From a bacterium (lineage in GTDB: Bacteria; Patescibacteriota; Gracilibacteria; Peribacterales; Peribacteraceae): DNA of 64,000 bases. The stretch covers positions 5,759 to 69,758 of the forward strand of contig JAKQEM010000014.1 of assembly GCA_029558515.1 (NCBI GenBank). Reading direction: 5' to 3'. Under the pieces are notes generated by a model. The model had not been told where the DNA came from. It searched no databases and saw only the letters and a list, made by a program, of their open reading frames with translations. Shown here in pieces: positions 1 through 63,052 of the stretch (position 1 is the stretch's first letter; the number at the start of each line of letters is the position of its first letter). A program made the translations under genes and the position numbers.

Positions 1-2506
<2,506 letters not shown>

Positions 2507-3499: not shown

Positions 3500-3648
3500 G
3501 GGCGAGGGAAGTGAGGGAGGTGAGAAAAGTGAGAAAAGGCAGGAAGGGCAGGAAGGGCGAAGGAATGAGGACGAAGATCAAATGGCAAAGGTCGAAACTG
3601 TATTGTATGACGTTGGGGAGAAGAATCAATGTCCGGCGAACAAATGTA

Positions 3649-3725
3649 CGTTACTTCGTTACTTCGTAGTATGGGATATGCTCTTTTCTGTGATTCGAGA
3701 TAACGAGATAACGAATCAACGAAAT
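3649..3725. repeat. oligomer-array hairpin (CGTTACTT x2 ... CGAGATAA x2)
   Basis: Imperfect inverted arms, each made of tandem 8-mers, in the divergent sod/femX spacer. Confidence 0.75.
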
Positions 3726-3750: not shown

Positions 3751-4965
3751 ATGACTATCCGCCTGCTCTCCTCCCCCGCCGACCTCACCGCCTACAACGC
3801 CTGGGTTGCCGCCCATCCGCACGGCAGCCTGTGGCAGTCGGTGACATGGAAGAAGTTCCAGGAAGCGATCGGGCGCGAGGTGCGCATCTTTGCTGCATTC
3901 GATGAGGGAACGATACGAGCATCCGCGTTGGTCGTGATCGATAAGACGAGTTTTGGACTGAGTACGTGGGACATACCGCGCGGCCCTCTGGGGCCGGCGG
4001 AAATGCTAAATGCTAAATGCAAAATGCAAAATGATCCGGTGAAAGTGCTCTTGCAGACAATCGTTGATGATGCACGGAAGATGCGCAGTCTCAGTGTGTA
4101 CTATTCTCCTCAGCAACCATTGCTCATTTCTCATTTTGCATTTCGCATTCGCGCCTCAGCGCGACATGAGCAACCCGAAGCCACGCGCATCCTCGACCTG
4201 ACGCAAGCGGAGGAAGCGATCCTCGCGCAGATGCATCCCAAAGGAAGATACAACATCAAAGTGGCGCGGAAGCATGGCGTGCGCGTGGAACAATCGGCCG
4301 CGACCGATGCGAACTCCTTCGCATATCTCGCGCAGGAGACCGCCAAACGCGACGGGTTTCGGGCGCTTTCCGCCGCGCATTACCGGGCGTTTCTGGAGAA
4401 TGTGGAGGGGAGTTTCCTATTGATTGCGAGCGCACCCTTCCTCTCCCCCCCGGCCCCCCTCTCCACGGGAGAGGGGGGAGACAAGCCTTGTCCCCCCTTC
4501 CTCCCATGGAGGAAGGGGCCGGGGGATGGAGGAAAAGAACCTATCGCCGCCCTCATCGGCACCGTCTGGAACAAAACCGGTTATTACTATTACGGCGCAT
4601 CCGACTACGCGCACCGCAGCCTGATGGCCCCGTACCTCTTACAGTGGGAGGCGATGCGGTACTGCAAAGAGCGAGGATGTGAGAAGTATGATTTGCTGGG
4701 AATCGCCCCTCTCCCCCCTTCCCCCTCTCCACGGGAGAGGGGGGGGACCAATTTCGGTACCAGTCTCCCCTTCCTCCCGCTTGCCCTGAGCGTAGTCGAA
4801 GGGTGGAGGAAGGGGCCGGGGGATGGAGGTCATCCCTGGCAAGGAGTTTCTTCCTTCAAGGAAAAATTCGGCGGCACCGTCGTCTCCTATCCCCCGGAGC
4901 AGGAGATTTTGCTCCGGCCGATGCTGAAGAGAATGCTGGGGTGGAAGAGGAGGATGGTGGGGTAA
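3751..4965 (+). CDS. FemAB-family peptidoglycan interpeptide-bridge aminoacyltransferase (FemX/MurM-like) carrying in-frame repeat insertions
   Basis: Family-typical motifs are present: HPKGRYNIKVARKHGV, GYYYYGASDYAHRSLMAPYLLQWEAMRYCKERGCEKYDLLGI and SSFKEKFGG. The ORF is about 75 aa longer than the conserved blocks require because of two GC-rich palindromic inserts. Confidence 0.8.
   Translation: MTIRLLSSPADLTAYNAWVAAHPHGSLWQSVTWKKFQEAIGREVRIFAAFDEGTIRASALVVIDKTSFGLSTWDIPRGPLGPAEMLNAKCKMQNDPVKVLLQTIVDDARKMRSLSVYYSPQQPLLISHFAFRIRASARHEQPEATRILDLTQAEEAILAQMHPKGRYNIKVARKHGVRVEQSAATDANSFAYLAQETAKRDGFRALSAAHYRAFLENVEGSFLLIASAPFLSPPAPLSTGEGGDKPCPPFLPWRKGPGDGGKEPIAALIGTVWNKTGYYYYGASDYAHRSLMAPYLLQWEAMRYCKERGCEKYDLLGIAPLPPSPSPRERGGTNFGTSLPFLPLALSVVEGWRKGPGDGGHPWQGVSSFKEKFGGTVVSYPPEQEILLRPMLKRMLGWKRRMVG
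4001..4035. repeat. heptamer array AAATGCT AAATGCT AAATGCA AAATGCA AAATGAT inside femX-like ORF
   Basis: Five tandem 7-mers, translated as (E)MLNAKCKMQND. An inverted partner lies at 4123-4152. Confidence 0.85.
4123..4152. repeat. heptamer array CTCATTT CTCATTT TGCATTT CGCATTC inside femX-like ORF
   Basis: Reverse complement of the AAATGCA-type units at 4001-4035. Translated as LISHFAFRIR. Confidence 0.8.
4435..4532. repeat. GC-rich nested-palindrome element, short form, in frame inside femX-like ORF
   Basis: CCCCCGGCCCC-CCTCTCC-ACG-GGAGAGG-GGGGAGACAAGCCTTGTCCCCCC-TTCCTCC-CAT-GGAGGAA-GGGGCCGGGGG. Translated as PFLSPPAPLSTGEGGDKPCPPFLPWRKGPGDGG. Confidence 0.9.
4706..4829. repeat. GC-rich nested-palindrome element, short form with expanded loops, in frame inside femX-like ORF
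   Basis: Same modules as 4435-4532, with extra sequence in two loops. Translated as PLPPSPSPRERGGTNFGTSLPFLPLALSVVEGWRKGPGDGG. Confidence 0.85.
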
Positions 4966-13642: not shown

Positions 13643-13664
13643 AAAATAAGAAGAGTTCATCAAG

Positions 13665-13724: not shown

Positions 13725-13919
13725 TCAGGCCTTATTTTCGGCGGCCGTAGCCGCCGTTTCTGGATGCTTCCGCATCCAGACTTCCTTTCGATCCACATCG
13801 ACGTCCGCCGGCGCCTCAATCGACAGCCGCACTCGGCCGCCCTGGATCCTCTCGACCGTCACTCGAATGCGATCGTCGATCACGATCGTCTCGCCGCATT
13901 TCCTTGACAACACTAACAT
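13725..13919 (-). CDS. csrA: carbon storage regulator CsrA (RNA-binding translational regulator)
   Basis: MLVLSRKCGETIVIDDRIRVTVERIQGGRVRLSIEAPADVDVDRKEV matches the CsrA family almost position by position. It is preceded by GGAGGAGGGAGCC-ATG. Confidence 0.95.
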   Translation of the reverse strand: MLVLSRKCGETIVIDDRIRVTVERIQGGRVRLSIEAPADVDVDRKEVWMRKHPETAATAAENKA

Positions 13920-14055: not shown

Positions 14056-14143
14056 CATGGCTATTGGCTATTCGCCCTTCGTCATTTTGCATTTCCCATT
14101 TCCCATTTTGCATTATCCATTCTCAATTATCCATTATCCATCC
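14056..14143. repeat. long 7-nt-periodic array (GGCTATT x2; CATTTTG CATTTCC CATTTCC CATTTTG CATTATC CATTCTC AATTATC CATTATC)
   Basis: Direct 7-nt periodicity over about 88 nt in the divergent csrA/fbaB spacer. Confidence 0.8.
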
Positions 14144-17646: not shown

Positions 17647-17946
17647 ATGGCCACCCTGACCGCCGCCGAAGTTCGACACATCGCAAAGCTCGCGCGCCTG
17701 CAACTGAGTGACGAGGAAGTGACGAAATTCGCAACGGAACTCACGAGCATCCTCTCCTACATCGATACGCTCCGGGAAGTCGATACCGCGGGCATTGAGC
17801 CGACGGCGCAAGTCACGGGTGCCGTGCATCGCCTGCGAGAAGACGCGCTGCGAGCGGGACCCTTGGCGGACCCGGATGCACTCCTTTCCACGAGTCCGCT
17901 CCCCATCGTCGATCATCAGATCCAGACGCCGTCCGCACACGGATGA
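17647..17946 (+). CDS. gatC: Asp/Glu-tRNA(Asn/Gln) amidotransferase subunit C
   Basis: VRHIAKLARLQLSDEEV..F...L..IL.YID.L.EVDT.G.EP is a typical GatC pattern. The gene is followed by gatA. Confidence 0.93.
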   Translation: MATLTAAEVRHIAKLARLQLSDEEVTKFATELTSILSYIDTLREVDTAGIEPTAQVTGAVHRLREDALRAGPLADPDALLSTSPLPIVDHQIQTPSAHG

Positions 17947-17951
17947 AGGGC

Positions 17952-17979
17952 GAATGTTGAATGGTGAATTTTGAATTTC
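17952..17979. repeat. heptamer array GAATGTT GAATGGT GAATTTT GAATTTC
   Basis: Four tandem 7-mers in the 49-nt gatC-gatA spacer. Confidence 0.75.
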
Positions 17980-19460: not shown

Positions 19461-19570
19461 GTTATTCGTTGATTCGTTATTTCGTTCGTTCGTTATCTCG
19501 TATCATCGGAGATACTCTTTCCCCTGACTCGAAATAACGAGATAACGAGATAACGCACATTCGTTCGTTT
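19461..19570. repeat. oligomer-array hairpin (GTTATTCGTTGATTCGTTATTTCGTTCGTTCGTTATCTCG ... CGAAATAACGAGATAACGAGATAACG)
   Basis: Long inverted arms (CGTTATCTCG/CGAGATAACG, GTTATTTCG/CGAAATAAC) directly after the gatA stop. Confidence 0.85.
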
Positions 19571-28896: not shown

Positions 28897-30030
28897 ATGC
28901 GTCTCGCCATCGTCGCAGACTGGCTGACTACCTTCGGCGGAGCCGAACATGTGCTTGCGCAGTTGCATGCCCTGTATCCGGATGCGCCCCTCTTCACCAC
29001 CGTGGCGCGGCGGGAGAAGCTGGGCCCGCTCGCCGATGCCGACATCCGCACCACCCGACTGCAGCACATCTATCGATGGACAAGTAATCACCAGATCCTG
29101 CTGCCGCTCATGCCGCGCGCGATCGAAGACATCGACCTGACGGGATATGACATCGTGATCAGCTCATCGCATGCCGTTGCCAAAGGCGTCGTCGTTCCCT
29201 CGACTACACTGCATCTGTGCTACTGCCACACACCCATGCGCTACGCGTGGGAAATGGAAGAAGAATATCTGCGTGATTTCGGCATACCGCGACTCCTGCG
29301 ACCGGCTGTCAAAAGGATGCTCTCACGCATGCGCCGCTGGGATCTGACCACCGCAAAACGCGTCGATGTGTTCCTTGCCAATTCCAAGACGACGCAGGAG
29401 CGCATCGCCCGCATCTACGCCAGCGAGAGCATCGTGATCCCTCCGCCGGTGGATGATCGCTTCTTCGGGCATCCCCTCACTACCCACTACCCAATACCCA
29501 ATACCCAATTCCTCGCGATCGGCCGCCTCGTTCCCTACAAGCGTTTCGATTTGCTGATTGCACTCGCCAACGAACTGCACCTTCCGCTCTTGATCGCCGG
29601 ACGCGGACAGGATGAAGCGAGACTGAAGAAACTTGCCGGGCCGACCGTCACGTTCCTCGGCTTCGTACCGGACGAAGATCTCCCCGCGCTCTATGCGCAA
29701 GCAAAAGCTCTCCTGTTTCCTCAGCACGAGGACGCGGGCATCGTCCCGCTGGAAGCGCAAGCCTGCGGCACGCCCGTCATCGCACTCAACAAAGGCGGCG
29801 CACTCGAAACGATTCTTGATGGCATAACCGGGCTCTTCTTCGCCGAGCAATCTACAAAGAGCATCCGCGACGCGCTGCAACGCTTTGACACAATGACGTG
29901 GGATCGACAGAAGATTCGCGATCATGCGCGACAGTTTTCACAAACGGAGTTTCGGAGGAAGATGGAAACAATGATTGCAAAAGAGTATGAAAATTTTCCT
30001 TCCTCTTCCATCTCTCATGGAAATAATTGA
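28897..30030 (+). CDS. glycosyltransferase family 4 (GT-B, RfaG-like)
   Basis: Contains FLAIGRLVPYKRFDLLI, FLGFV.DEDL..LY..AKALLFPQHEDAGIVPLEAQACGTPVIA...GGALETI.DG.TGLFF. An internal heptamer array is also present. Confidence 0.9.
   Translation: MRLAIVADWLTTFGGAEHVLAQLHALYPDAPLFTTVARREKLGPLADADIRTTRLQHIYRWTSNHQILLPLMPRAIEDIDLTGYDIVISSSHAVAKGVVVPSTTLHLCYCHTPMRYAWEMEEEYLRDFGIPRLLRPAVKRMLSRMRRWDLTTAKRVDVFLANSKTTQERIARIYASESIVIPPPVDDRFFGHPLTTHYPIPNTQFLAIGRLVPYKRFDLLIALANELHLPLLIAGRGQDEARLKKLAGPTVTFLGFVPDEDLPALYAQAKALLFPQHEDAGIVPLEAQACGTPVIALNKGGALETILDGITGLFFAEQSTKSIRDALQRFDTMTWDRQKIRDHARQFSQTEFRRKMETMIAKEYENFPSSSISHGNN
29479..29513. repeat. heptamer array ACTACCC ACTACCC AATACCC AATACCC AATTCCT inside GT4 ORF
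   Basis: Five tandem 7-mers translated as THYPIPNTQF, in the inter-domain region of the glycosyltransferase. Confidence 0.85.
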
Positions 30031-30251: not shown

Positions 30252-30275
30252 GTTACTCCGTTACTCCGTTACTCC
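30252..30275. repeat. octamer array GTTACTCC x3
   Basis: Perfect triple repeat ending 4 nt before the nnrD ATG. The same 8-mer recurs at 52573-52604. Confidence 0.85.
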
Positions 30276-30279
30276 TCCC

Positions 30280-31053
30280 ATGTCCCGCTCCCCTGTTTCC
30301 CACAAAGGTGAAAACGGAAAGGTGGCGATCATCGGGGGATCGCGGTGGATCCACGGAGCGCCGCTCCTCTCGGCGCTGGCGGCGGAAAGCTCCGGCGCGG
30401 ATTTGCTCTACCTCTTTGTCCCGCCCTGTCATGAAGAAGTCGCCAAACACACGTCGCTCAATTTCCAGGTGCGCACTTTCGAAGAAGACGCGCTGACAGA
30501 AAGAGACATCGCTCCCATCCTGGAACTGCTCGCGAGCATGGACTGCGCCGTCATCGGACCGGGATTGGATCGGACACCGGAGACGTTGCGCGCCATCGCG
30601 CACCTCATCGGCGGAGCGCTGTGCCCGCTGGTGCTGGATGCCTCTGCGCTGCAACCTGAAACCCCGGACGCCGTGACGGAGAAAGCAGCTGTCCTCACTC
30701 CGCATCTTGGCGAACTGGAACGCATGGGCATTCCCGAAAACGGACTGATGCAAGCGGCGGTAAATCACGGCGTCACCATCCTCCTCAAAGGTCCCGTCGA
30801 TCGCATCGCCGCGCCGGATGGAACCCTCACGGACAGCAGGGGCGGCACTGCGGGGCTCACCGTCGGCGGCACGGGAGACGCGCTTTCCGGACTCATCGCT
30901 GGACTGATCGCGCAGGGAGAAGCACTCCCCCGGTCGGCCATCCGCGCATCGACGATCATCAAGAAAGCGGCGGAGCATCTGTCGGCGCAGGGGCAAAGCG
31001 TGTTCACGGCGCGGGAAGTGATTGAGATGATTCCGTTGCTGATGAGGGAGTAG
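30280..31053 (+). CDS. nnrD: ADP-dependent NAD(P)H-hydrate dehydratase (YjeF C-terminal / Nnr2 type)
   Basis: Contains HKGENGKVAIIGGS....GAP.LSALAA..SGADL, AVIGPGL, VLDA.AL, VLTPH.GE and GGTGDALSG.IAGL.AQG. Confidence 0.88.
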   Translation: MSRSPVSHKGENGKVAIIGGSRWIHGAPLLSALAAESSGADLLYLFVPPCHEEVAKHTSLNFQVRTFEEDALTERDIAPILELLASMDCAVIGPGLDRTPETLRAIAHLIGGALCPLVLDASALQPETPDAVTEKAAVLTPHLGELERMGIPENGLMQAAVNHGVTILLKGPVDRIAAPDGTLTDSRGGTAGLTVGGTGDALSGLIAGLIAQGEALPRSAIRASTIIKKAAEHLSAQGQSVFTAREVIEMIPLLMRE

Positions 31054-31236
31054 GGGGTAGGGGGTAGAAGATTTGAAGGATGACAAAGACTACAAAGAGG
31101 ACAAGGAAGACAAGGAAGACAAGGAACTGCTGGATGGGGTGTGCATGCTATCTGTATCGTGTCCTTGGATTCTTTGAAGCCCATGTAATCCTTGTAGTCC
31201 TCGCAGTCCTTGTCATCTTTTCATCTTCGTCTTCCC
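31051..31236. repeat. oligomer-array hairpin (TAGGGGG x2; GACAAGGAA-type units vs TCCTTGT-type units)
   Basis: The left arm GATGACAAAGACTACAAAGAGGACAAGGAAGACAAGGAAGACAAGGAAC is an imperfect inverted repeat of GTAATCCTTGTAGTCCTCGCAGTCCTTGTCATC. It lies between nnrD and pgeF. Confidence 0.75.
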
Positions 31237-31914
31237 ATGATCGACTCCCCTTTCCACATCTTCGCCCCCTTCGCCGACCGTCTCGCCGTGCGGCTCTGCA
31301 CGAGAGCCGATGCCGTCAACGGCGATGATGCACTGCGCACGCTCCTGCACACCGACCGCATCGCGTCGCTGCATCAAGTGCACGGCAACCATACGATCAT
31401 CGTACAGGAACCGACCTCGCGCACGGAACAAGCCGACGGATTCGTCACCGATACGCCCGACTTGTTCCTGACGATTCGCACCGCGGACTGCCAGAGCATC
31501 CTCGCGTTCGATCCCGCAACAAACGTGCTCGGTATGCTCCACTGCGGCTGGCGCGGGCTCGTGCATGGCGCGATTCCCGCGTTCATCGCAACGTTCCACG
31601 ATCACTTCCACTCGCATCCCGCCGATCTCCTCGTCGGCTGCGGTCCGTCGCTCTGCAAGCGTTGCGCACATTTTTCCGATCCGCGCACGGAACTTCCCGG
31701 CATCCCCGATTACTTCTTCGATGATCACCGCGTCGACCTGCAAGCCGTCGCACATTGGCAACTCACGGAAAGCGGCGTACGAACGAGCAACATCGAACGC
31801 AGCCCCGAGTGCACCAAGTGCAACAATGATCTCTACTGGTCCTATCGCGGCACTGATCGGGACAGAGTGAAAGAGGGATGGACGAACGTGCTGGCCGCAG
31901 CGTTACTTCGTTGA
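31237..31914 (+). CDS. pgeF: peptidoglycan editing factor PgeF / YfiH (DUF152 laccase-domain protein)
   Basis: Contains LHQVHGN, ADGFVTDTPDLFLTIRTADCQSILAFD...GMLHCGWRG, CGPSLCKRC and CT.C....Y.SYR. Confidence 0.88.
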   Translation: MIDSPFHIFAPFADRLAVRLCTRADAVNGDDALRTLLHTDRIASLHQVHGNHTIIVQEPTSRTEQADGFVTDTPDLFLTIRTADCQSILAFDPATNVLGMLHCGWRGLVHGAIPAFIATFHDHFHSHPADLLVGCGPSLCKRCAHFSDPRTELPGIPDYFFDDHRVDLQAVAHWQLTESGVRTSNIERSPECTKCNNDLYWSYRGTDRDRVKEGWTNVLAAALLR

Positions 31915-31950
31915 TTCGTTCTTTCGTTGATGCGTAATTTCGTTCATTCG
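31901..31950. repeat. 8-nt-periodic array CGTTACTT CGTTGATT CGTTCTTT CGTTGATG CGTAATTT CGTTCATT
   Basis: Six tandem 8-mers. The first units encode the last residues and the stop codon of pgeF. Confidence 0.8.
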
Positions 31951-32064
31951 TATGTGCCAGTCAGAGAGGATCGACGCTGCTTCCAATTAATTTACAGACG
32001 TCAGTAAACTGCAATGTAGACTCCTGTTTGCCATCCCCTCAGGGTTCGATACGCTGTACTCCCC

Positions 32065-32763: not shown

Positions 32764-32775
32764 TGGGGACCAATA

Positions 32776-33627: not shown

Positions 33628-33682
33628 AGAAAGCAGTGTACGACTGTACACCGTACATGCAAGTGATTTTTCTCGACCCTCT

Positions 33683-33848
33683 CCCGCACCTTTCCTATAC
33701 TTCCCCCGTCTCGGGGATGCGTCAGGACAGAATATTGTTTCTTCCTATCAGCGCTTATGGGAGGCTCAATCCCCCGCACCTTTCGCACGGTACACGCGCT
33801 TGGATGGCATCTGCCATTCATTCCCGTCCCCACCCGGAAAGGTGCGGG
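33683..33848. repeat. MITE-like element of a different family (13-bp perfect terminal inverted repeat)
   Basis: CCCGCACCTTTCC (33683-33695) and GGAAAGGTGCGGG (33836-33848), plus an internal direct copy CCCGCACCTTTCG at about 33774. Confidence 0.7.
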
Positions 33849-33966
33849 GTGCGGTCACCCCCTTGGGAATCCAAGGATGAAGCGTTTCTGTCGCAACGGT
33901 TGCCTGGGACATGATTGATTGAGACGAATGGCACAAGAACGGTGTGGCGCGTAGAATGATTCTTCC

Positions 33967-43182: not shown

Positions 43183-45207
43183 TCACTCACCGAAGGTGAC
43201 ATACCGGAGCGTCACGCTCCCCAACTGCATCTGTGCGCTGTCGACCGCGGCAAGCGTGAAGACGAAGAGAACATCTCCATCCGGCGTCCACGTGGGTGTT
43301 CCCGCAAATCCGAGATCAGCCATCGCCCAAGAAGCGGACGCAAGATCGGACGCCGTCCCCGTGAGACTCACCGCTTGATCTGCCGTATCGAACACCGCCA
43401 CGGAGAGCGCATTCTCGCTGGCATTCGCCGTCGCAGACCGGTATTCGACGCGCAGCGGTTCTTCCTCCCAACGAAGAAACGCCGCGGGGAGACGCACTTT
43501 CAATTGAATCGCGTAGTCTTGGAGCGTGGTGCGCGTACTCGTCCACAGATAGGCATTCTTCTTCGCCACATCATCAAAATCAACGACCAGCTGCCCCACG
43601 TTATTCGTGCCGTCCGCCTGGTAGCTTGCATTGGGAAACTGCGGATGCAGTGAAAGTTGCACCGTCCGCTCCCGATCACCGCCCGGCAAGCTGGCGATGT
43701 CGACGCCGTTGATGAGTCCCGTCACCGTCAGATCTCCTTCGATGCGCAGATCATCATTGAAGGTGAATCGTCCGTTGAGGAGATCGTACGACAGTGTTTT
43801 CGCAAGATCGGTACCAAACTGCAGATCGATGCGTTCGGTCTCGGAATCGTTCGCGTCCATGACAAACGAGCCGGCGTTCGTTCCGCCCGGCACCATCTCC
43901 ACGGGCAATGTCCCGCCGCTCCCCAGGAGCGGAATGGAACCGCTCCCCGTTCCGATATCGCGAAAATCGAGAAGATCCGCGTTGCGTGTGAACGGGAGAG
44001 AGAGAATCGGAGAACGATCTTTCGCCGGATCTCCCACATTCACATCCAGCATTTGGTACGACGCATCGGGTGCGGCGACCGGTTTGACGTCCACCTGCAG
44101 GAAGAGATCGATGTCCGACGCCGTGGGAAGCGGTGACGACGCTCCGAGCACGACGGAGAAAAATCCGCGCGCATCGGGCGTGACTGCGTGTGTTTCCGAC
44201 CAAGAGGTATACTCCGCCGCCGCTTCATTGATGGAACCGTCCGGTAAACTATCCCCATCCAGTTTGTCCTCGCTGCGCCATTGGCTGAATCGAATGGAGA
44301 ACGTGCCGGTCGCGGGGACGCCGTCCTTGGTGAGGAGATGTCCGTTATAGACATACTGTTGCGGCACCGTCGTGGCGGCGTCCGCACGCGGAATCAGAAG
44401 CTCGGGCAAAAACGGGCTGAAGCTCGCCAACGTGCAGAGGATGCCCAGAAGCAGGACGAACCGACGCAGCCATTTCCTCCGACGCAGTTGCAGGGATCTC
44501 GCGATGCTCGCACAGGTAATGAGTACGCCTCCCATGAATGCCAAGATCAGATACACAATCGTGATGCATCGACACCTCTTCGACACGATGCGTTCCACGG
44601 GCCATGCTTCAGAGGCATCCGTCGATGACATCGACGATGCGTCAAAAGAAGATCGGCCGTCCATGATCGCCTGTGACATCGCAGGCACACTGCTCACGGA
44701 CATCGGCACTGCGATCTGACCGGTCGGCGGCCGTATGCCCCTGCGGGAGGAAGATGCCACGGGCGCCCCAAAGTGGAATCGTTCGGAGGAAGAAGAGGAA
44801 GAGGATGAAGAGGAGGAAGAGGAGGAAGAAGAAGTGGAAAACCGATGGAATCCGCCGCCCCCGCCATCATCCCGGGACGTATCGTCAGACGTATCCGACG
44901 AGGACGCGACGCTGCTGCTTGACTCACTGCTCTCGCTTGAACCGGCATGTGCACCCGCATCCAAGTAGATCGGCACGACGATAAAGTCTTCGCTCACCCC
45001 GCTGCGATTGAACGCATCCAAACGCGCAAACGAATCAAAATCATCCGAACCGGACAACCCCACCACCGCATCACCGAATGACTGTGTGGAAAGCAAATAG
45101 TCGTCGCTCTCCAGAGCTAAAGCTGCTCTCGGCATCAGGAGTGCGGCGCACACGTACACGTATGCCAGAGAAGGAAACAGCCTGTACTTGCTTGTTTGTG
45201 AAAACAT
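43183..45207 (-). CDS. bipartite surface protein: signal peptide + Ser-rich region + internal TM pair + paralogue 3 module
   Basis: An S17 homopolymer tract is encoded by GAA/GAG-type repeats at 44770-44830. Two internal TM helices are present. The protein then carries the shared modules (IDLQFGTDLAKTLSYDLLNGRFTFNDDLRIEGDLTVTG; LSLHPQFPNASY...LQDYAIQLKVRLP). Confidence 0.65.
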   Translation of the reverse strand: MFSQTSKYRLFPSLAYVYVCAALLMPRAALALESDDYLLSTQSFGDAVVGLSGSDDFDSFARLDAFNRSGVSEDFIVVPIYLDAGAHAGSSESSESSSSVASSSDTSDDTSRDDGGGGGFHRFSTSSSSSSSSSSSSSSSSERFHFGAPVASSSRRGIRPPTGQIAVPMSVSSVPAMSQAIMDGRSSFDASSMSSTDASEAWPVERIVSKRCRCITIVYLILAFMGGVLITCASIARSLQLRRRKWLRRFVLLLGILCTLASFSPFLPELLIPRADAATTVPQQYVYNGHLLTKDGVPATGTFSIRFSQWRSEDKLDGDSLPDGSINEAAAEYTSWSETHAVTPDARGFFSVVLGASSPLPTASDIDLFLQVDVKPVAAPDASYQMLDVNVGDPAKDRSPILSLPFTRNADLLDFRDIGTGSGSIPLLGSGGTLPVEMVPGGTNAGSFVMDANDSETERIDLQFGTDLAKTLSYDLLNGRFTFNDDLRIEGDLTVTGLINGVDIASLPGGDRERTVQLSLHPQFPNASYQADGTNNVGQLVVDFDDVAKKNAYLWTSTRTTLQDYAIQLKVRLPAAFLRWEEEPLRVEYRSATANASENALSVAVFDTADQAVSLTGTASDLASASWAMADLGFAGTPTWTPDGDVLFVFTLAAVDSAQMQLGSVTLRYVTFGE

Positions 45208-49340: not shown

Positions 49341-49398
49341 ATGTGATACGTGTCATGAATACAACGGAGTCTTGTGGAAACACAGGGCTCCGTTTTGC

Positions 49399-49476
49399 GA
49401 ATGACCAATGACCAAGCACCAATGACCAACCCGCTCCGAAGAAACTTGGTCATTGGGATTTGGGATTTGGTCATTT
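49399..49476. repeat. oligomer-array hairpin (AATGACC units vs GGTCATT / TTGGGAT units)
   Basis: GAATGACCAATGACCAAGCACCAATGACCAAC ... CTTGGTCATTGGGATTTGGGATTTGGTCATTT, between hup and khpB. Confidence 0.8.
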
Positions 49477-50078: not shown

Positions 50079-50110
50079 GGTGGTAGGGGGTAGGGAGTAG
50101 GGAGTAGGTG
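50079..50110. repeat. heptamer array GTAGGGG GTAGGGA GTAGGGA GTAGGTG
   Basis: Four tandem 7-mers just after the khpB stop. Related to TAGGGGGTAGGGGGTAG at 31051. Confidence 0.75.
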
Positions 50111-50200: not shown

Positions 50201-50455
50201 ATGCCCAAAGACGTTCCCATCAAAGAATTCCGCGATAATCTGGCCGACTATGCCAATCGCATCGAAGCGGGGGAATCATTTCGCGTCATCCGTCGGTCCA
50301 AGCCGTCATTCATCGTCATGCATGTCAACGGGGACGGAGAGAACGATGAGCAGTGGGAAACAATCGTCGATTGTACGGAAAACGGAAAACATCCCGGGAT
50401 GCCCGCCGATGATCTCCTGAAACTTTTGCAGAAGATTCGTCGCTCCGATGGATAA
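50201..50455 (+). CDS. type II antitoxin, Phd/YefM family
   Basis: The VPIKEFRDNLADYANRIEAGESFRVIRRSKPSFIVM N-terminus is typical of Phd/YefM. The gene overlaps the toxin gene by 8 nt. Confidence 0.75.
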   Translation: MPKDVPIKEFRDNLADYANRIEAGESFRVIRRSKPSFIVMHVNGDGENDEQWETIVDCTENGKHPGMPADDLLKLLQKIRRSDG

Positions 50456-50690
50456 GATTGAAAAAGCATTGCGAGCGATTCCCTTGCGTGACCGTTCGCG
50501 TATCGAAGAAGCCATCATTCTCCTTCTTGCAAGAAAATTGGAGACTCTGCAGTGCGGTAAACTGCAAGGATACGACTGCATCTACCGCGTGCGCGTGGGA
50601 CGCTACCGCATCATCTACTATGATGACGGGGACAATATAGTGATCAAAGCCATCAAAAAACGAAACGAGTCGACGTATCGGGCGGTGTGA
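50448..50690 (+). CDS. type II toxin, RelE/ParE family
   Basis: KLQGYDCIYRVRVGRYRIIYYDDGDNIVIKAIKKRNESTY matches the RelE/StbE core (YR.RVGDYRIIY...V..I.HR...Y). Confidence 0.8.
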   Translation: MDKIEKALRAIPLRDRSRIEEAIILLLARKLETLQCGKLQGYDCIYRVRVGRYRIIYYDDGDNIVIKAIKKRNESTYRAV

Positions 50691-52513: not shown

Positions 52514-52519
52514 GAGGAA

Positions 52520-52604
52520 AGAATAACAGAATAACAGAATAACAGGACGAATAATCTCGATCAGCACCAGCTGTTACTCCGTTACTCCGATATTCCGTTA
52601 CTCC
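52520..52604. repeat. oligomer-array hairpin (GAATAACA x3 ... GTTACTCC-type x3)
   Basis: The arms pair with A-C mismatches on the plus strand. These become G-U wobbles on the minus-strand RNA, and both flanking genes are on the minus strand. Confidence 0.85.
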
Positions 52605-52607
52605 TCT

Positions 52608-53078
52608 TCATCCTTCACTGATCCGCACGATCTTCACCTTGTCCTCGCGGGGAATCAGAATTTTCAGAATGCATTCTTTGTTGAACGTCGCACGGACTTT
52701 CTTCGCGTCAATGGTGAAGGGCAACGTGACGGAGCGGGAAAACTCCCCCCAGTAGCACTCCTGCAAATAGTACTGATCGGCGGGAACGGCGTCGCCCTGA
52801 TGACGCGCGCCGCGGATGGTGATGACATTGTCGACGATTTCCAAATCGAGGTCACTCATGCGCACGCCTGCGATGGGCACCTTGATGATGACGTATCCGT
52901 CCTGCTCGAAGATGTCCACGGCCACCTGTCCCTGTTGCGAACGTCCCGCGCCGGAAGCGGCAGGCATCGAGGGCGCACGTTCTTCGACGGCACGCGTCTC
53001 CCGCAAGAGCGCGCTCTCCTGCAAGTCGTCCTGTCCGAGAGAAGAGAAAATGCCGTGGAAAGGAAACGGGGAGGACAT
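52608..53078 (-). CDS. Hsp20/alpha-crystallin small heat-shock protein
   Basis: Alpha-crystallin domain: VDIFEQDGYVIIKVPIAGVRMSDLDLEIVDNVITIRG......YYLQECYWGEFSRSVTLP..IDAKKVRATFNKECILKILIP. Confidence 0.88.
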   Translation of the reverse strand: MSSPFPFHGIFSSLGQDDLQESALLRETRAVEERAPSMPAASGAGRSQQGQVAVDIFEQDGYVIIKVPIAGVRMSDLDLEIVDNVITIRGARHQGDAVPADQYYLQECYWGEFSRSVTLPFTIDAKKVRATFNKECILKILIPREDKVKIVRISEG

Positions 53079-53164: not shown

Positions 53165-53968
53165 ATGACGATGCTGCAAGCGATGCTCATCGGCGCGATG
53201 CAGGGGCTGACGGAATTCCTGCCGATCTCCAGCGACGGACATCTGGTGCTGGCGGGTCTGCTGCTGCAGATTCCCTTGGAAGGACGCGATGCACTGGGAT
53301 TTGACGTACTCCTGCACGGGGGCAGTCTGCTCGCGCTGCTCCTCGTCTACCGGCGCATGTGGACCGGATTGATCATCGATGCCCTCAACGCAGCGCGCGA
53401 TGCACGCCGCATGATCGGATGGCTTGCGCTGGGCACGATCCCCGGGGTGCCGGCGGGACTGGCGCTGCAAGAGACGATCGGCGAGATGCGGTCGCTCTCC
53501 GCGGCCGGCATCGGATTTCTGATTACCGGCATCGTGCTCATTGCGGGGGAGGCAATCGGAAGGGTTCGAGCAACCACATCCGACGATCGCATGACGACGG
53601 CGCGCGCGCTCCTCATCGGCGGCGCACAGGCGGTTGCGATTCTGCCGGGCGTGTCGCGTTCGGGACTGACGATCTCCACGGGGCGCGCTCTGGGGATGCG
53701 ACGGAGCGCCGCGCTCGACTTCTCCTTCCTCCTCGCAGTGCCAATCATCGCGGGAGCACTGGGAAAAACACTGCTGGATGCAGGATCGGGAGAGGTCGTG
53801 TTCCCCTCATCGACGATCGCCCTCGCGGGATTTCTCACATCCTTCCTCGTCAGCACCGCCGCCATTCATCTGCTGCGCGTGCTGGTGACACAGCGAAGCC
53901 TCGCCGTGTTCGCGTGGTACCTCATTCCTCTGGGAACAACGCTGCTCGTTATTTCGTTGAATCGATGA
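53165..53968 (+). CDS. uppP: undecaprenyl-diphosphate phosphatase
   Basis: GLTEFLPISSDGHLVL, GVSRSGLTISTG and multiple TM helices. Confidence 0.92.
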   Translation: MTMLQAMLIGAMQGLTEFLPISSDGHLVLAGLLLQIPLEGRDALGFDVLLHGGSLLALLLVYRRMWTGLIIDALNAARDARRMIGWLALGTIPGVPAGLALQETIGEMRSLSAAGIGFLITGIVLIAGEAIGRVRATTSDDRMTTARALLIGGAQAVAILPGVSRSGLTISTGRALGMRRSAALDFSFLLAVPIIAGALGKTLLDAGSGEVVFPSSTIALAGFLTSFLVSTAAIHLLRVLVTQRSLAVFAWYLIPLGTTLLVISLNR

Positions 53969-54040
53969 CAAGTGGAATCCCAAATGACGAGAGAACGAAA
54001 TAACCAGATAACGAAATAACGAAGTAACGTATAACGAATC
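53947..54040. repeat. oligomer-array hairpin (CGTTATTTCGTTGAATCG ... CGAGAGAACGAAATAACCAGATAACGAAATAACGAAGTAACGTATAACGAATC)
   Basis: The left arm is the last 18 nt of uppP coding sequence. The right arm is an 8-nt-periodic array. Confidence 0.75.
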
Positions 54041-54355: not shown

Positions 54356-54450
54356 AGTATTGGGTATGAAGTATTGAGTATCGTGGATATTTTGGAGTGT
54401 GCATCCGTCACTCTCAATACTCAATACTCAATACTCAATACTCAATACTG
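54356..54450. repeat. oligomer-array hairpin (AGTATTG units vs CTCAATA x5)
   Basis: AGTATTGGGTATGAAGTATTGAGTATCG ... CTCAATACTCAATACTCAATACTCAATACTCAATACTG in the convergent xre/recJ spacer. The last codons and stop of recJ lie in the array. Confidence 0.85.
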
Positions 54451-56057: not shown

Positions 56058-56184
56058 GATGCCAGTATGCGGTCAGAAGCCACATACCTCAATATTGCTC
56101 TACGCAAAGAAAAACGAACAACGAAATAACCCGTCTCCGCCTAGGGCTCCGCCGAGGCAGGCGAATCAACTAAATTACGTCGTT

Positions 56185-59496: not shown

Positions 59497-60507
59497 TCAG
59501 AACTTATCCGGCACATGCCAATTCACAGGATGAGCAGTTTTTTCGATTTGATCCGCCACATCCAGCACTAAAGCAAAGATCGCCATCCTTACAGGGATAC
59601 CGTTATCGGTCTGGTTAAACATCGCCAGACGCGGATCGCCATCCAAATCATGGTCCAGCTCGTTTGATGCCTCTCTGCTATCCCTCGGCATCGGATGAAG
59701 GAGCATTACATCGGGCTTGGCAATGGAATCCAATGTTTTCCTGTCGATTCTCAATTTTCCACGATATCTCTGAAACTCGGCGGGATCATCAAATCGTTCC
59801 TCCTGCATGCGGGTGAGGTAGATGACGTCCGCATCGGAGATGGCATCAATGGAATTGTGGAAGGTCATCGTGTGTTTTCTGCCTGTCGATCCAACGCTTT
59901 CTTGCACGTTCGCAGGCATCTGAAGACCGTTCGGCGCGATGAATTTGAAATTGATCCCCTCATACATTTTTGAAAGTAGACGCACGAATGAATGGATGAC
60001 TCTCGCAAATTTTAGATCACCCGCAATCGCTATGGTTTTCCCATTCGGCTCGCCGATTCTTGCCTCGATAGTATAGACATCAAGCAACGCCTGCGTCGGG
60101 TGTTCTCCGATACCGTCACCACCGTTGATGACCGGAACACCCACGGCATCAGCCACTTCCTTCGCCGCTCCGGTTTGAGGATGTCGTACTGTGATGACAT
60201 CTGCATAGCCACCAACGACTCGCGCAGTGTCACGCAAACTCTCACCTTTGACCAATGACGTCGTTTCAACTCCACTGGTATCCCGAACAGATCCTCCCAA
60301 GCGATTGAAAGCTGTTCCAAAACTGATACGTGTTCTTGTGCTCGGCTCAAAAAACAAATTGGCCAACACTGCTCCTTCTAAAACGCGGGTGACCCTTTGT
60401 CGGAATGCAAAAGGCTCGATCACCTTTGACAAATCAAATATGGCCCTTGCATCGGAAGCAGCCAAAGTCTCAATACTGATGATGTCCTTTCCTTCCAGAG
60501 GATTCAT
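59497..60507 (-). CDS. pyrB: aspartate carbamoyltransferase catalytic subunit-like
   Basis: FFEPSTRTRISF, VRHP, INGGDGIGEHPTQALLD and LHPMPR (ATCase-type HPxPR). No pyrI or other pyr genes nearby. Lower GC. Confidence 0.85.
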   Translation of the reverse strand: MNPLEGKDIISIETLAASDARAIFDLSKVIEPFAFRQRVTRVLEGAVLANLFFEPSTRTRISFGTAFNRLGGSVRDTSGVETTSLVKGESLRDTARVVGGYADVITVRHPQTGAAKEVADAVGVPVINGGDGIGEHPTQALLDVYTIEARIGEPNGKTIAIAGDLKFARVIHSFVRLLSKMYEGINFKFIAPNGLQMPANVQESVGSTGRKHTMTFHNSIDAISDADVIYLTRMQEERFDDPAEFQRYRGKLRIDRKTLDSIAKPDVMLLHPMPRDSREASNELDHDLDGDPRLAMFNQTDNGIPVRMAIFALVLDVADQIEKTAHPVNWHVPDKF

Positions 60508-60638
60508 AGAGAACTATTGAAAAAGAGATTGTTAGTATATATGAATACATGATTAAGTCCAGTATGGATTCAACATGAAATTCGGGGCGATGCACTGCCT
60601 CTTTCTGATAGCACCCCTCTCTGATACCCTGCGGAGTG

Positions 60639-61262
60639 ATGATAAAAACAGTCTTTTTTGATTTTGACGGGGTTCTCACCACGGATGGCTCGGGCTCGTT
60701 TACGACCTGCACGAATATCCAAAAACTCATCCCCGATGTTACATTTGATCATATTCTCAGGTGTTACAAGGTATATCACCCAAAAATGCTCTTAGGGCAG
60801 ATGACCCACGCAGCCATCTGGAAAGAATTTTGCAACTGCATCGGTAAAGACAACTATCTTGATAGTACGGTTCTTCATGAGGCTTTTAGAAATACTCCGA
60901 TGAATACAAAGATGATGGATCTGGCAAAAAAACTAAAGAAGCACTACAAGCTGGGGATCATTACGGACAACAGTAAAGAGCGATTTGATGTATTACAATC
61001 GAAAATGAAGCTGTCTGATGTATTTGAAATTATTGTTGTCTCCGGTGAAACTGGAATACGAAAAGACAGTGATGAAACTTTTGAGAGAGCGCTTTCACTT
61101 GCAGATTGCAAACCCGAGGAATGCGTTTTTATCGATAACAACGAGGATAATCTTATCGCTCCTCGAAAATTGGGATGGAACACGATTCTTCATGATCATA
61201 GGAAAAATGATGTCGATCTTGTGATTGGTGCATTAAAGAAATTGGGAGTCTTAATTACATGA
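60639..61262 (+). CDS. HAD-superfamily hydrolase, subfamily IA
   Basis: VFFDFDGVL (motif I), GIITDNS (motif II) and FIDNNEDN (motif IV). Confidence 0.8.
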   Translation: MIKTVFFDFDGVLTTDGSGSFTTCTNIQKLIPDVTFDHILRCYKVYHPKMLLGQMTHAAIWKEFCNCIGKDNYLDSTVLHEAFRNTPMNTKMMDLAKKLKKHYKLGIITDNSKERFDVLQSKMKLSDVFEIIVVSGETGIRKDSDETFERALSLADCKPEECVFIDNNEDNLIAPRKLGWNTILHDHRKNDVDLVIGALKKLGVLIT

Positions 61263-61273
61263 GTATTGCTGCA

Positions 61274-63034
61274 TTACGTTTGTCTCCAATGAGACGATGA
61301 CTGGCGCATCCATAATTCCAACGTAACCAGAGCCCAGATCACCCTTCCGTGGCTTTGCTGCTTGCTGTCATTTTCCTGAATGAAATGGGCAAGGACATCG
61401 GGCTTGATCCATTTGCGAGTGAGTGCATTATCATCGAGCAACATATCAGAAGCCCAGACTGCACCTTCACCGGAAGTCCATTGGTCCACGAGACTGGGGA
61501 AGTGCACTTTCTCGCGATAGAGTATTTCATCTGGCAAAAATGGCTTTGCGACGGCCTGTAAAAATTGCTTTCCTGAAGAGCCGACGATTCCGGCATGAGG
61601 AATTTGCAGGGCGATCTCCACGATGCGTCGATCGAGGAAGGGCACTCTCGCTTCGACGCCATGCGCCATCGTCATGCGGTCGAGTCTGTTGCAATGATAC
61701 TCGGTCAGTCGGTCGAAGCGCTCGAACTGGAGAGCCTGATCTACACTTGTAAACGGTTCCACCGGTTCACCAACGTAGTCGATCATGGGTCGGAGTTTGG
61801 ATTTTGCTTCGTCGGTATAGAGTTCATCCGCTTCTTGAGGAGACAGCGTCCACAGACGCGGTGGGTATTCCATAGTCGGATTTGCACCTTTTTCAAACCA
61901 AGGCTTATGCCTGCTGTAGCCGATGAAAAATTCGTCAGAACCGTCTCCGGTAAGCACTGATTTAATTCCAAGTTCTTGTGCCCGCTTCGCCAGAAGATAC
62001 GTTCCAATGTGAATGGGATTCTCCAGGGGGTCATCCATGAAGACCACGGCTTCTTCCAAGGTTTTTCTTGCGTTTTCGTCCGACACGTCCACCCATTCAA
62101 AAGAAGTACCGAGGTGTTTCTCAAGCAATGCAGCGTATGGTTCATCTTCAACCGAATTCGGTAAGAATCTGAGTGATATCGGTTGCTGGTACGTCGACTC
62201 ATTCTGCAACCCGATGGCCGTTATCAAAGATGAATCTAAGCCGCCTGATACGAAGTATCCTCCCTTCACATCGGCTTTTGTGTTCTCCTGTACGACGCGC
62301 AGCAGCAGTCCCCGGAATTCTTCGACTCTTTTCTCTTCGTTAACTTCGGAAGTTTTGGCATTGGGCCGGAGCTTCCAGTATTGCCGATGTGATTCCTGAT
62401 GCCCCTGAAACACAACCCTCTCGCCTGGAAGTACGCGATGGATATTTGGAAACACAGTCGATCTTCCGGGATGGAATCGATACTTTAAGCAATCATCGAT
62501 CGCAGAAAAATCAGCCTCTTGAATAGGATCCACAACGGCATGTACTGCTTTTGCTTCGGATGAGAAAACAACACGCCCATCCGAATGGGAGTAGTAAAGT
62601 GGTTTGATCCCGAGAGGATCGCGCCACAGTTGCAGCGTGTTATTCAAACGATCATAAATTGCAATTGCAAACATTCCCGCCAGCTTCTCAACAAAATTTT
62701 CTCCGTATTGTTCAAAAAGGGGCAAGATCACGGCGCTGTCACCCAGATCGATGCCGGGCGCATTGTTCAAACCCTTCCTCAGATCAATATGGTTTACGAT
62801 TTCTCCGTTGAAGACTGCGAAACGTGTACGATCCCTCGTCGACTGCACCGTAGAGCGAATTTCAGGAGCAACTATCGCCAATCTATTCATACCGAATGCC
62901 GCTTTCTCGAAGACCACAGCCTCCGAGTCGTCGGGTCCACGATGCTTGATGATTTGCTGCATCAGACTGATCTTCAGGGGAAGATCTTCGCTGTTCCTGC
63001 CATTGAAGTCGACGATTCCGTTCATGCCGCACAT
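61274..63034 (-). CDS. asnB: asparagine synthase (glutamine-hydrolysing) family amidotransferase
   Basis: N-terminal MCG nucleophile, an Ntn-amidotransferase domain, and the SGGLDSS PP-loop. Confidence 0.9.
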   Translation of the reverse strand: MCGMNGIVDFNGRNSEDLPLKISLMQQIIKHRGPDDSEAVVFEKAAFGMNRLAIVAPEIRSTVQSTRDRTRFAVFNGEIVNHIDLRKGLNNAPGIDLGDSAVILPLFEQYGENFVEKLAGMFAIAIYDRLNNTLQLWRDPLGIKPLYYSHSDGRVVFSSEAKAVHAVVDPIQEADFSAIDDCLKYRFHPGRSTVFPNIHRVLPGERVVFQGHQESHRQYWKLRPNAKTSEVNEEKRVEEFRGLLLRVVQENTKADVKGGYFVSGGLDSSLITAIGLQNESTYQQPISLRFLPNSVEDEPYAALLEKHLGTSFEWVDVSDENARKTLEEAVVFMDDPLENPIHIGTYLLAKRAQELGIKSVLTGDGSDEFFIGYSRHKPWFEKGANPTMEYPPRLWTLSPQEADELYTDEAKSKLRPMIDYVGEPVEPFTSVDQALQFERFDRLTEYHCNRLDRMTMAHGVEARVPFLDRRIVEIALQIPHAGIVGSSGKQFLQAVAKPFLPDEILYREKVHFPSLVDQWTSGEGAVWASDMLLDDNALTRKWIKPDVLAHFIQENDSKQQSHGRVIWALVTLELWMRQSSSHWRQT

Positions 63035-63052
63035 ACAGCAAAGAGAAGAAAA

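Follow-up and report, generated by a model that had tools for sequence, protein, structure and literature searches.

The hairpin at positions 52514 to 52607 of the 64,000-nt stretch of DNA analysed here (the window; positions 5,759 to 69,758 of contig JAKQEM010000014.1, assembly GCA_029558515.1, and part of the JGI contig Ga0209096_1000202) lies between hsp20 and a gene for a Cys-rich protein. With evenly balanced confidence, we read it as one copy of the lineage-wide dispersed palindromic repeats of the class Peribacteria (Candidatus Peregrinibacteriota; Candidate Phyla Radiation, CPR), which resemble short tandemly repeated repetitive sequences (STRR) and repetitive extragenic palindromic (REP) elements and would be made and kept mainly at the DNA level by slippage and copying. 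The arms of these hairpins are arrays of two to seven copies of 7-, 8- or 9-nt units. We infer both mechanisms, a mostly neutral or selfish maintenance of the copies, and effects of this particular copy on hsp20 and on a downstream promoter.

The left arm of the hsp20 hairpin comprises 3.2 copies of AGAATAAC (52520-52545; 100% identity in Tandem Repeats Finder, TRF) and the right arm 4.0 copies of GTTACTCC (52573-52604); the arms are separated by a 27-nt spacer and both belong to the octamer family GTTAYTYN. Each arm (52520 vs 52573) is homogeneous inside, and the two differ from each other at fixed positions of the unit. An initial annotation of the window had pointed out that the arms form A-C mismatches on the plus strand and G-U wobbles on the minus strand. 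The asymmetry is real. The minus-strand RNA forms a single long, imperfect hairpin: the minimum free energy (MFE) of the RNA is -39.4 kcal/mol for the minus strand (z -4.96) and -22.4 kcal/mol for the plus strand (z -2.10), and with DNA parameters folding is significant on the minus strand only (z -4.25 vs -0.87). Both neighbours are transcribed from the minus strand, as had been stated, namely hsp20 (Pfam HSP20; 52608-53078) and the Cys-rich gene. The product of the latter has a length of 385 or 580 aa, depending on the gene-calling pipeline. An alignment with the orthologue in the related locus L013 (MQPVCKQC... vs ...VQQTCRQC...) makes the GTG at 52513 the most likely start codon of the Cys-rich gene, so that the hairpin would fill the entire 94-nt spacer.

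Arrays of this kind are abundant in the window. TRF detected 19, 14 and 12 arrays with periods of 7, 8 and 9 nt, where dinucleotide shuffles, which set the chance level, yield means of 1.5, 1.6 and 1.7; other periods are at background. For the 9.8 kb of intergenic DNA, the corresponding numbers are 9, 13 and 6 vs 0.33, 0.10 and 0.20 expected. The 15% of the window outside genes hold 24 of 39 arrays. Of the 39 spacers with a length of 40 nt or more, 15 (38%) carry an array, and the octamer dimer GTTAYTYNGTTAYTY occurs 13 times (0.01 expected). All 12 loci listed in the initial annotation contain TRF arrays (7-9 nt) with the units named there, and its description of a distinct, AT-richer class of repeats, often arranged as inverted pairs and abutting stop or start codons, is borne out. 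Arrays missing from that list are located at 4001-4033/4125-4149, 29481-29509, 3504-3558, 9816-9834 and 13603-13643, and a remnant of the octamer family at 56116-56130 is likewise absent from it.

Spacers with arrays include divergent, convergent, tandem and intra-operon ones. Nine arrays overlap a stop codon or begin within 10 nt of one. Five or six others reach to 10 nt or less from a start codon, namely that of DeoC, of sodA, of the Cys-rich gene and of the genes that begin at 30280 and 31237. Inverted pairs with spacers of ~15-90 nt are present at eight loci, single arms at six. The claim that the unit differs between loci stands insofar as the window contains at least 10 unit families, but GTTAYTYN recurs at seven loci, and families are shared between loci and between genomes. 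Six of the eight inverted pairs fold clearly better than shuffled sequences, whereas the pairs at 3649-3714 (a weak hairpin with z -1.3 / -0.65) and 53947-54038 do so barely or not at all (z -0.65 to -2.0). A CRISPR array, with repeats of 24-48 nt and unique spacers of similar length, was ruled out, as units of 7-9 nt follow each other head-to-tail without spacers; Rho rut sites, telomerase-like synthesis and iterons were rejected for want of any supporting feature. Rfam models at gathering thresholds matched two tRNAs in the window and none of the arrays.

For both BacA and the FemAB-like protein, every homologue with a name belongs to Candidatus Peribacteria or Peregrinibacteria. The window has a GC content of ~58% and is 85% coding; Candidatus Peribacter riflensis has a GC content of 58.5% and a genome of 1.25 Mb (PMC4736985). 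Arrays are not mentioned in that report (PMC4736985), and a full-text literature search for Peregrinibacteria in combination with tandem repeats found nothing. Searches with BacA returned one distant locus among genome contigs (L001, 61% identity); among the metagenome matches listed, the relatives are L014-L017, and the others (35-42% identity) served as a control set. All nine Peribacteria loci contain arrays of period 7-8, at densities of 2.8-8.3 per 10 kb. A strict test for inverted tandem pairs detected ~4 in ~600 kb of unrelated control loci, as against five in the 64-kb window, and three of the ~4 control pairs come from L027 and L029. These two loci represent unrelated bacteria (BacA ~40% identical, GC 61-64%), and their inverted tandem 7-8-mer pairs are located after stop codons (L027 671-794 and 7869-7960; L029 8981-9053), with (GGAGTGAT)x3 ... 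(ACTCCAAC)x3 as an example.

Among the relatives, the position of the hairpins is kept while their units are exchanged. L013 (GCA_964478005.1), whose proteins are ~70% identical to those of the window, is syntenic over topA-HU-Jag-Cys-rich gene-hsp20-bacA-HTH-recJ (HTH, helix-turn-helix regulator) and carries a tandem-arm hairpin at five of the five spacers that are orthologous to occupied spacers of the window. The unit is the same in the HU-Jag spacer (AATGACC) and the bacA-HTH spacer (CGTTATTT octamers) and different in the other three: AAATGCA replaces GTAGGGA after Jag, an AATGACC hairpin replaces the octamers between hsp20 and the Cys-rich gene, and GGCTGTT replaces AGTATTG between HTH and recJ, where L014 has a third unit, TTCGTTTA. 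The pairs in the divergent spacer between sodA and FemAB have a different unit in each of the window, L096 and L098; L094 and L097 lack a pair there. The turnover of units that the initial annotation had suggested looking for in relatives was thus found (L013, L014, L096 and L098). Eight further genomes, which come from other samples, have the same elements at orthologous positions.

An all-against-all comparison of the arrays across loci and genomes revealed copies shared between non-orthologous sites. The right arm of the hsp20 hairpin is the same array as that at 30252-30275 (100% over 19 nt). An arm in FemAB of the window (4125-4149) is identical to the HU-Jag spacer of L013 over 27 nt (CATTTCTCATTTTGCATTTCGCATTC), and 49400-49429 matches the hsp20/Cys-rich gene hairpin of L013 by 97% over 32 nt, extending into the loop. 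A FemAB arm of L098 agrees with two intergenic hairpins of the same genome (97% over 32 nt), and the array composite at 14058..14141 is related to a FemAB arm of L094 (96% over 26 nt). Judged by such sequence identities, the arrays are families of copies rather than independent products of slippage, because the same irregular successions of unit variants are met again at sites that are not orthologous and across genomes. L098 also contains two near-identical hairpin copies with flanks (140-300 and 970-1130; 100% over at least 45 nt) at a distance of ~830 nt, in a region without called genes.

One scan of viral contigs for the arrays gave no match. Octamers CGTTACTC and CGTTACTT are present in four to nine copies in two IMG/VR contigs with GC contents of 47% and 30% (L099 9530-9584; L100 4547-4621; L101 1945-1994 and 3006-3038), one of which is rich in further 8-9-mer arrays. 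Their occurrence in two unrelated contigs is probably a coincidence, although the family could be more widely distributed.

Some arrays lie inside genes. In FemAB, the arrays at 4001-4149 are translated in frame to EMLNAKCKMQND ... LLISHFAFRIRA; a length insertion was rejected by comparison with orthologues from Peribacteria and with FemX of S. aureus. The FemAB orthologues (50-60% identity) have 7-residue-periodic peptides at both corresponding places, and at the DNA level six of six genomes (the window and five more) have a heptamer hairpin at these codons, with units that differ among genomes (Table 1). The best partner of any arm 1 is the arm 2 from the same genome or from a close relative, and the total of the own-arm pairings equals the maximum of all 720 permutations, which is attained by four of them. 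The sole systematic mismatch is a C for G in L095, where a perfect complement would put TGA in every frame; the L095 arms are internally homogeneous and differ from their partner at fixed positions of the unit.

These sequences show that the two FemAB arms are coupled. The coupling could result from selection for pairing or from copying, either from arm to arm or by wholesale replacement, and the identities between the FemAB arm and the intergenic hairpins of L098 suggest wholesale replacement from other copies in the genome. In the six FemAB hairpins, G-U and A-C mismatches on the sense strand amount to 5:11; a preference for G-U is lacking, which favours a process at the DNA level. In the FemAB hairpin of L098 (10230-10364), the reverse-complemented arm 2 contains the variants of arm 1 in mirrored order (U1U2U3U4 vs U4U3U1U1), which is not expected of a simple palindrome.

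A second case is the sodA gene of L094, where an array (9414-9444) constitutes an in-frame insertion of 10 codons (ANGKLKMENE) at a turn of the protein. It is missing from five orthologues and identical to a FemAB arm of L094 over 25 nt. FemAB also contains a second, GC-rich class of repeats (4706-4745; further occurrences at 2841-2866 and 13603-13643): the palindrome CCCCCCTTCCCCCTCTCC-ACG-GGAGAGGGGGGGG at 4706-4745 is in frame and encodes PLPPSPSPRERGG. FemAB orthologues range in length from 322 to 405 aa and vary exactly at places of the GC-rich type, with peptides such as PSPLKGRG.

Table 1. Tandem arrays and inverted pairs in the window, and heptamer arms of FemAB in the window and in related loci.
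Feature	Position	Strand	Units	Setting
hsp20 hairpin	52514..52607	minus		spacer between hsp20 and Cys-rich gene
Inverted octamer pair	3649..3714		CGTTACTT x2.4 / CGAGATAA x2.4	divergent sodA/FemAB spacer
Heptamer hairpin	4001..4149	+	(AAATGCT/AAATGCA)x4.7 ... (xxxCATT)x3.6	in frame in FemAB coding sequence
Composite direct arrays	14058..14141		TGGCTAT x2, CATTTCC x2.7, CCATTAT x5.6	divergent csrA/DeoC spacer; stops 7 nt ahead of DeoC ATG
Single array	17944..17976		GAATGTT x3.6	intra-operon, gatC stop to gatA start
Inverted octamer pair	19461..19555		GTTATTCG-type x5 / CGAGATAA x3.2	8 nt past gatA stop
Single array	29481..29509	+	TACCCAA x4.1	in frame in GT4 glycosyltransferase, in linker joining two GT4 domains; encodes ...LTTHYPIPNTQF...
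Single array	30252..30275		GTTACTCC x3.0 (100% identity)	5 nt before ATG of NAD(P)H-hydrate dehydratase
Array	31045..31067		AGGGGGT x3.3	overlaps stop of gene 30280-31053
Inverted 9-mer pair	31082..31227		GACAAAGAA x5 / GTCCTTGTA x5.9	10 nt before ATG 31237
Single octamer array	31907..31951		CGTTACTT family, x5.6	overlaps stop codon at 31914
Inverted heptamer pair	49400..49476		AATGACC x4.3 / TTGGGAT-TTGGTCA	HU terminator to Jag -10 box
Single array	50083..50108		GTAGGGA x3.7	9 nt past Jag stop
Inverted octamer pair	53947..54038		CGTTATTT-type / AAATAACG x7.2	bacA-HTH spacer; CGTTATTT-type arm overlaps bacA stop; pair upstream of promoter of HTH regulator gene
Inverted heptamer pair	54356..54449		AGTATTG x3.7 / CTCAATA x5.3	fills convergent HTH regulator/recJ spacer; overlaps recJ stop; copy number polymorphic
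Octamer-family remnant	56116..56130	minus	GTTATTTCGTTGTTC	recJ to next gene
FemAB arms, L094 and L097			arm 1 GGAAAAT; arm 2 ATTTTCC/A	
FemAB arms, L096			arm 1 GGAGAAT; arm 2 ATTCTCA	
FemAB arms, L098			arm 1 GGACAAT; arm 2 ATTGTCC	
FemAB arms, window			arm 1 GCAAAAT; arm 2 xTGCATT	
FemAB arms, L095			arm 1 TCAGAAT; arm 2 ATTCTCA	

The window begins with rpoB (1-2572, minus strand) and includes patches of low GC content (0.47-0.52 vs 0.58) at 50201-50690, 32000-34000 and 60000-64000. One of the patches contains an antitoxin-like open reading frame and a ParE toxin as a pair between Jag and the Cys-rich gene, which is absent from L013.

Under the favoured reading of the arrays as DNA-level repeats, replication slippage within an arm would add or remove whole units and homogenise the arm, as is indicated by a polymorphism of one unit step and by arms that are perfect inside yet unlike their partner. 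Sequence would also be copied between arms and between loci, keeping the arms complementary and dispersing the arrays; the shared irregular runs and the insertion in sodA argue for this step, and intrastrand template switching, ectopic gene conversion or a transposition-like process are candidate routes. Copies would survive where they are tolerated, in the spacers at gene boundaries and in permissive loops of proteins, where only units without a stop codon in the sense frames would persist. Effects on expression would be secondary and at least partly a by-product. The hsp20 hairpin would be co-transcribed with hsp20, so that a stem of ~38 bp (-39 kcal/mol) located 4 nt past the stop codon could halt 3' exonucleases or pause RNA polymerase, and its last octamer could supply an extended -10-like box, TGTTATTCT, for the Cys-rich gene.

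Several findings weigh against a process driven mainly by slippage and copying. Among the called genes of the ~200 kb of Peribacteria DNA sampled, there is no transposase (neither Y1_Tnp/REP-associated tyrosine transposase, RAYT, nor any other) and no other mobilising enzyme. Orthologous spacers are occupied in five of five cases against a background of 38%, and the background itself, 38% of the spacers of at least 40 nt, is reached despite small genomes (~1.25 Mb; PMC4736985) that are 85% coding; a high occupancy of spacers, both overall and at orthologous sites, is equally expected from selection for function. The co-variation of the arms within coding sequences may equally reflect selection for pairing. 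Moreover, repertoires of units are conserved across genomes with ~50-70% protein identity, which is unexpected if the arrays are neutral, and a single polymorphism was observed at the population level. A real function of the elements is a live possibility.

If there is such a function, it might reside in a maintained system, in which a hairpin is kept at defined boundaries and in FemAB over class-level divergence while the unit is free to change as long as the arms match. We consider such a system unlikely. It would imply a structure-specific partner acting in trans, which might bind or cleave the element (a binding protein or a nuclease) or copy it in the manner of a transposase, or, alternatively, a structural role of the DNA or RNA, as an insulator or as a buffer between replication and transcription, in small, largely leaderless genomes without Shine-Dalgarno (SD) motifs. 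The strand bias of the occupied spacers (8/9 vs 2/11), taken with wobbles on the G-rich strand, would then indicate a mechanism linked to replication. Co-directional spacers of at least 40 nt carry arrays in eight of nine cases between plus-strand genes and in two of 11 cases between minus-strand genes (Fisher ~0.005, post hoc). The GC skew of the plus strand is negative throughout, and plus-strand genes would be head-on to replication.

Hairpins that function at the level of RNA, as barriers to 3'-end degradation, as terminators independent of a U-tract or as RNase sites that bound transcripts, with a stabilising role like that of REPs, are a tentative alternative and likewise unlikely to account for the class; selection at the RNA level is the view taken in the initial annotation. 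This explanation draws on the nine arrays that overlap or closely follow stop codons, on the retention of hairpins in orthologous spacers whose units have changed, and on the lack of any other terminator candidate in the bacA-HTH, hsp20-Cys-rich gene and convergent HTH-recJ spacers. As RNA, a number of hairpins attain a very high stability (z -4 to -7.8), and at the hsp20 locus the transcribed strand folds better by 17 kcal/mol. Values for single loci are z -7.75 / -7.0 at 54356..54449, z -3.65 on the plus and -4.09 on the minus strand at 19461..19555, and an MFE of -68.0 on the plus and -63.8 on the minus strand at 31082..31227. By contrast, arrays are also located in divergent promoter spacers, within the gatC-gatA operon and in coding sequences, six loci have single arms, and two of the pairs fold barely or not better than shuffles.

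The direction of the mismatches also bears on this explanation. From the hsp20 locus, the initial annotation had generalized strand-specific G-U pairing to the whole class, and it had named a distribution of A-C and G-U mismatches that is random with respect to transcription as evidence to the contrary. When the left arm was aligned to the reverse complement of the right in ~13 hairpins with a defined direction of transcription, the ratio of sense G-U to A-C was 5:0 at the hsp20 locus, 11:9 among the intergenic hairpins of the window and L013 (6:9 excluding the hsp20 locus) and 16:20 in total, and the sign of the MFE difference between strands was divided 3:3. Judged by the evidence that the initial annotation had named, its general claim is refuted, and the G-U signature does not extend past the hsp20 locus. 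The five wobbles of the hsp20 hairpin are two unit-level differences multiplied by the tandem copies and represent at most two or three events. Within the window, wobbles favour the minus, G-rich strand by 17:4 regardless of the direction of the genes, and across the nine Peribacteria loci they fall on the G-rich strand by 43:25. Because the wobbles of the window follow the minus strand whatever the transcription, a compositional mutation bias linked to replication explains the asymmetry at least as well as selection on RNA.

The structure of the HU-Jag spacer also speaks against a role at the level of RNA. As the initial annotation had concluded, the array hairpins are not classical intrinsic terminators: their stems are AT-rich and imperfect, and none is followed by a U-tract. 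HU has a canonical terminator of its own upstream of the tandem-arm hairpin (49363-49396; a 14-bp GC-rich stem with a GAAA loop and UUUUG; z -4.9), which is conserved in L013 (6712-6748) with compensatory changes in the stem. With this terminator on one side and the -10 box of Jag (TGCTATAGT) on the other, the hairpin at 49400-49476 is probably poorly transcribed and outside any abundant transcript.

Recognition of the DNA by proteins is a further alternative, in which the arrays are cooperative or looping sites for nucleoid-associated or global regulators, as has been proposed (IHF/HU) for Geobacter; we regard it as distinctly doubtful. In architecture, the arrays agree with the Geobacter classes 1-3, including GTTGCTYN, which is similar to GTTAYTYN (PMC2700814). 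Particular units are conserved across genomes with 50-70% protein identity, the periodicity is retained even where the hairpin is of poor stability, and the wobbles have no strand bias relative to transcription. However, the genome (~1.25 Mb) has few regulators, and with 10 or more unit families in a 64-kb stretch of it, one protein per family is implausible. The units at orthologous sites are freely swapped for unrelated ones, which is unexpected of a sequence-specific site, and the co-variation of the arms speaks for pairing or copying, not for a protein that reads an invariant motif. CsrA-like proteins are among the candidates proposed as binders of the heptamer repeats in Beggiatoaceae (PMC4679880). 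In the window, the spacers next to csrA (13725-13919) are rich in arrays, and two tandem csrA-like genes are present in L097 (18242-18595 and 18853-19071).

An improbable explanation is that the arrays next to start codons act as expression modules or rheostats, that is, as promoter or leader elements in which slippage tunes or switches a gene in the manner of contingency loci. The setting of the genes provides some common ground. In the 25 nt upstream of 52 complete called genes of the window, an SD-like motif is present in five cases and a C/U-rich motif (CTCC, TCCC etc.) in 31; the last 20 nt before the starts are 65% pyrimidine, and the sense strand of the arrays near start codons is similarly rich in pyrimidines. 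Many ATGs are preceded at a distance of only 6-15 nt by TGnTAnnnT boxes that resemble an extended -10, which suggests that the mRNAs are mostly leaderless or have a very short leader. The last octamer of the hsp20 hairpin (52514-52522) contains a box of this appearance, TGTTATTCT, 7 nt before the downstream GTG, where L013 has TATACT. The start codons mentioned above have an array at a distance of 10 nt or less in five or six cases, one polymorphism of a unit step is at hand, and arrays are located in genes of the cell envelope (FemAB, GT4). Against rheostats speaks that the majority of the arrays are found after stop codons or between convergent genes, that the observed polymorphism alters neither a reading frame nor the spacing of a promoter, that most units are unlike -10 or -35 boxes, and that the partner arm of the hairpin has no role in the model. 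A function of the units as -10 boxes in general was rejected, as only TGTTATTCT and CATTAT (before DeoC) are similar, and a scan of 44-64 kb for consensus promoters and terminators yielded no excess over shuffles and no match at the arrays.

An artefact of assembly or sequencing is practically excluded. Assemblies from short reads do break in the arrays, namely at 44785-44829 (two ENA contigs) and at 54442 (a Logan contig, inside the CTCAATA array). However, the JGI, ENA and Logan assemblies, which may come from the same or related samples, are 100% identical wherever they overlap the window except for one 7-nt unit. The exception is the CTCAATA array at 54413-54449, with five copies in one assembly and four in another; it is the sole difference over 19 kb and represents a single event. 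An artefact is refuted by independent genomes, eight of which, obtained from other samples, share the elements at orthologous positions, and in-frame arrays are translated into regions of conserved length. The two ENA contigs overlap solely within the 9-mer array GGAGGAAGA at 44785-44829, which codes for a Glu-rich repeat of a 674-aa protein.

The non-coding DNA of CPR bacteria, whose genomes are tiny, is little known; here, one kind of repeat fills more than a third of the usable spacers and also invades coding sequences. This makes the Peribacteria a tractable case for the origin, the spread and the continued pairing of palindromic, microsatellite-like repeats, and it bears on the possible function of elements that have long been noted and never explained in Geobacter, Xanthomonas, cyanobacteria and Beggiatoaceae. 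Practical effects include broken short-read assemblies, shifted calls of gene starts and 7-residue-periodic peptides in enzymes.

The initial annotation did not recognise the architecture as a described class of elements, but there are precedents in Geobacter (PMC2700814), Xanthomonas (PMC4692102) and Beggiatoaceae (PMC4679880). In Geobacter metallireducens, the octamer GTTGCTYN is arranged in tandem sets of four (24 pairs), 8-9-mers in sets of three (21 pairs) and the heptamer MTYCTGA in sets of five (eight pairs); the paired sites lie on opposite strands at a variable distance, and binding of IHF or HU was suggested as a hypothesis (PMC2700814). The Peribacteria arrays resemble these classes 1-3 in the existence of several classes, the three to five tandem units of 7-9 nt, the pairing on opposite strands, the intergenic and sometimes intragenic location and the similarity of class 1 to GTTAYTYN. 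They differ in phylum and units, and whereas the Geobacter sites appear only in supplementary alignments, the conservation of position, the turnover of units, the co-variation of arms and the persistence in coding sequences are described here only. Insertion sequence elements insert at fixed distances from the Geobacter sites; none were seen in the Peribacteria DNA sampled.

Xanthomonas carries 70-75 convergent inverted pairs of GGGAATC near stop and start codons that are capable of forming stem-loops, and the GGGAATC arrays of Xanthomonas and GGGGA(C/T)T arrays of Nostoc are intergenic, comprise 2-26 units and differ in length between species while the type is kept (PMC4692102). G-rich units of the window (GTAGGGG, GGGATTT) resemble these heptamers. 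Unlike the single G-rich unit of Xanthomonas and Nostoc, which is read as forming G-quadruplexes, the units of the Peribacteria are many, mostly AT-rich and without G-quadruplex potential. In Beggiatoaceae, arrays of TAACTGA are located just upstream of start codons that lack an SD motif; among the long simple repeats of bacteria, heptamers are the most frequent type, for which slippage has been offered as an explanation (PMC4679880). The arrays described here likewise end a few nucleotides before SD-less starts, occur occasionally inside open reading frames and yield stop codons in all frames when read in forward orientation. In contrast to the Peribacteria arrays, those of Beggiatoaceae consist of a single unit, are inverted in one of 170 sets and have a fixed orientation to the downstream gene.

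STRRs of cyanobacteria, or long simple sequence repeats with units of 5-11 nt, were reportedly described by Mazel in 1990 and Mrazek in 2007. This work is summarised in PMC4679880 and PMC4692102. Like STRRs, the arrays of the Peribacteria are dispersed, include tandem heptamers, are over-represented outside genes and can be attributed to polymerase slippage. However, an STRR is in most cases one direct array of three units, whereas inverted pairing is the rule here and octamers are as common as heptamers. The unit TGACCAA of the window is the reverse complement of what we take to be the unit of STRR2, TTGGTCA, and the chance of one such match is roughly a few percent.

REPs and the composite clusters that they form (bacterial interspersed mosaic elements, BIMEs) share with the Peribacteria hairpins the small size, the imperfect palindromes that fill spacers after stop codons, the composite clustering and the homogeneity of families within a genome. 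REPs measure 20-40 nt, stabilise the upstream mRNA, are not tandem and have a GTAG head and a cognate RAYT transposase; the arms in the Peribacteria are tandem, with varied units and without a common head motif. Rickettsia palindromic elements (RPEs), which are 100-150 bp long and not tandem, are located in frame at permissive surface positions of proteins. The in-frame copy in the conserved SodA protein of L094 is a likeness of behaviour only and not of homology, and to our knowledge, RPEs do not keep a co-variation of arms at one site across a class. The repeats of the Peribacteria are thus of a kind that is already known, though unexplained, and appear here in a new phylum and with more unit families; what is new is their persistence at a position while the units turn over, the copies shared across loci and across genomes, and the co-variation of the arms inside coding sequences.

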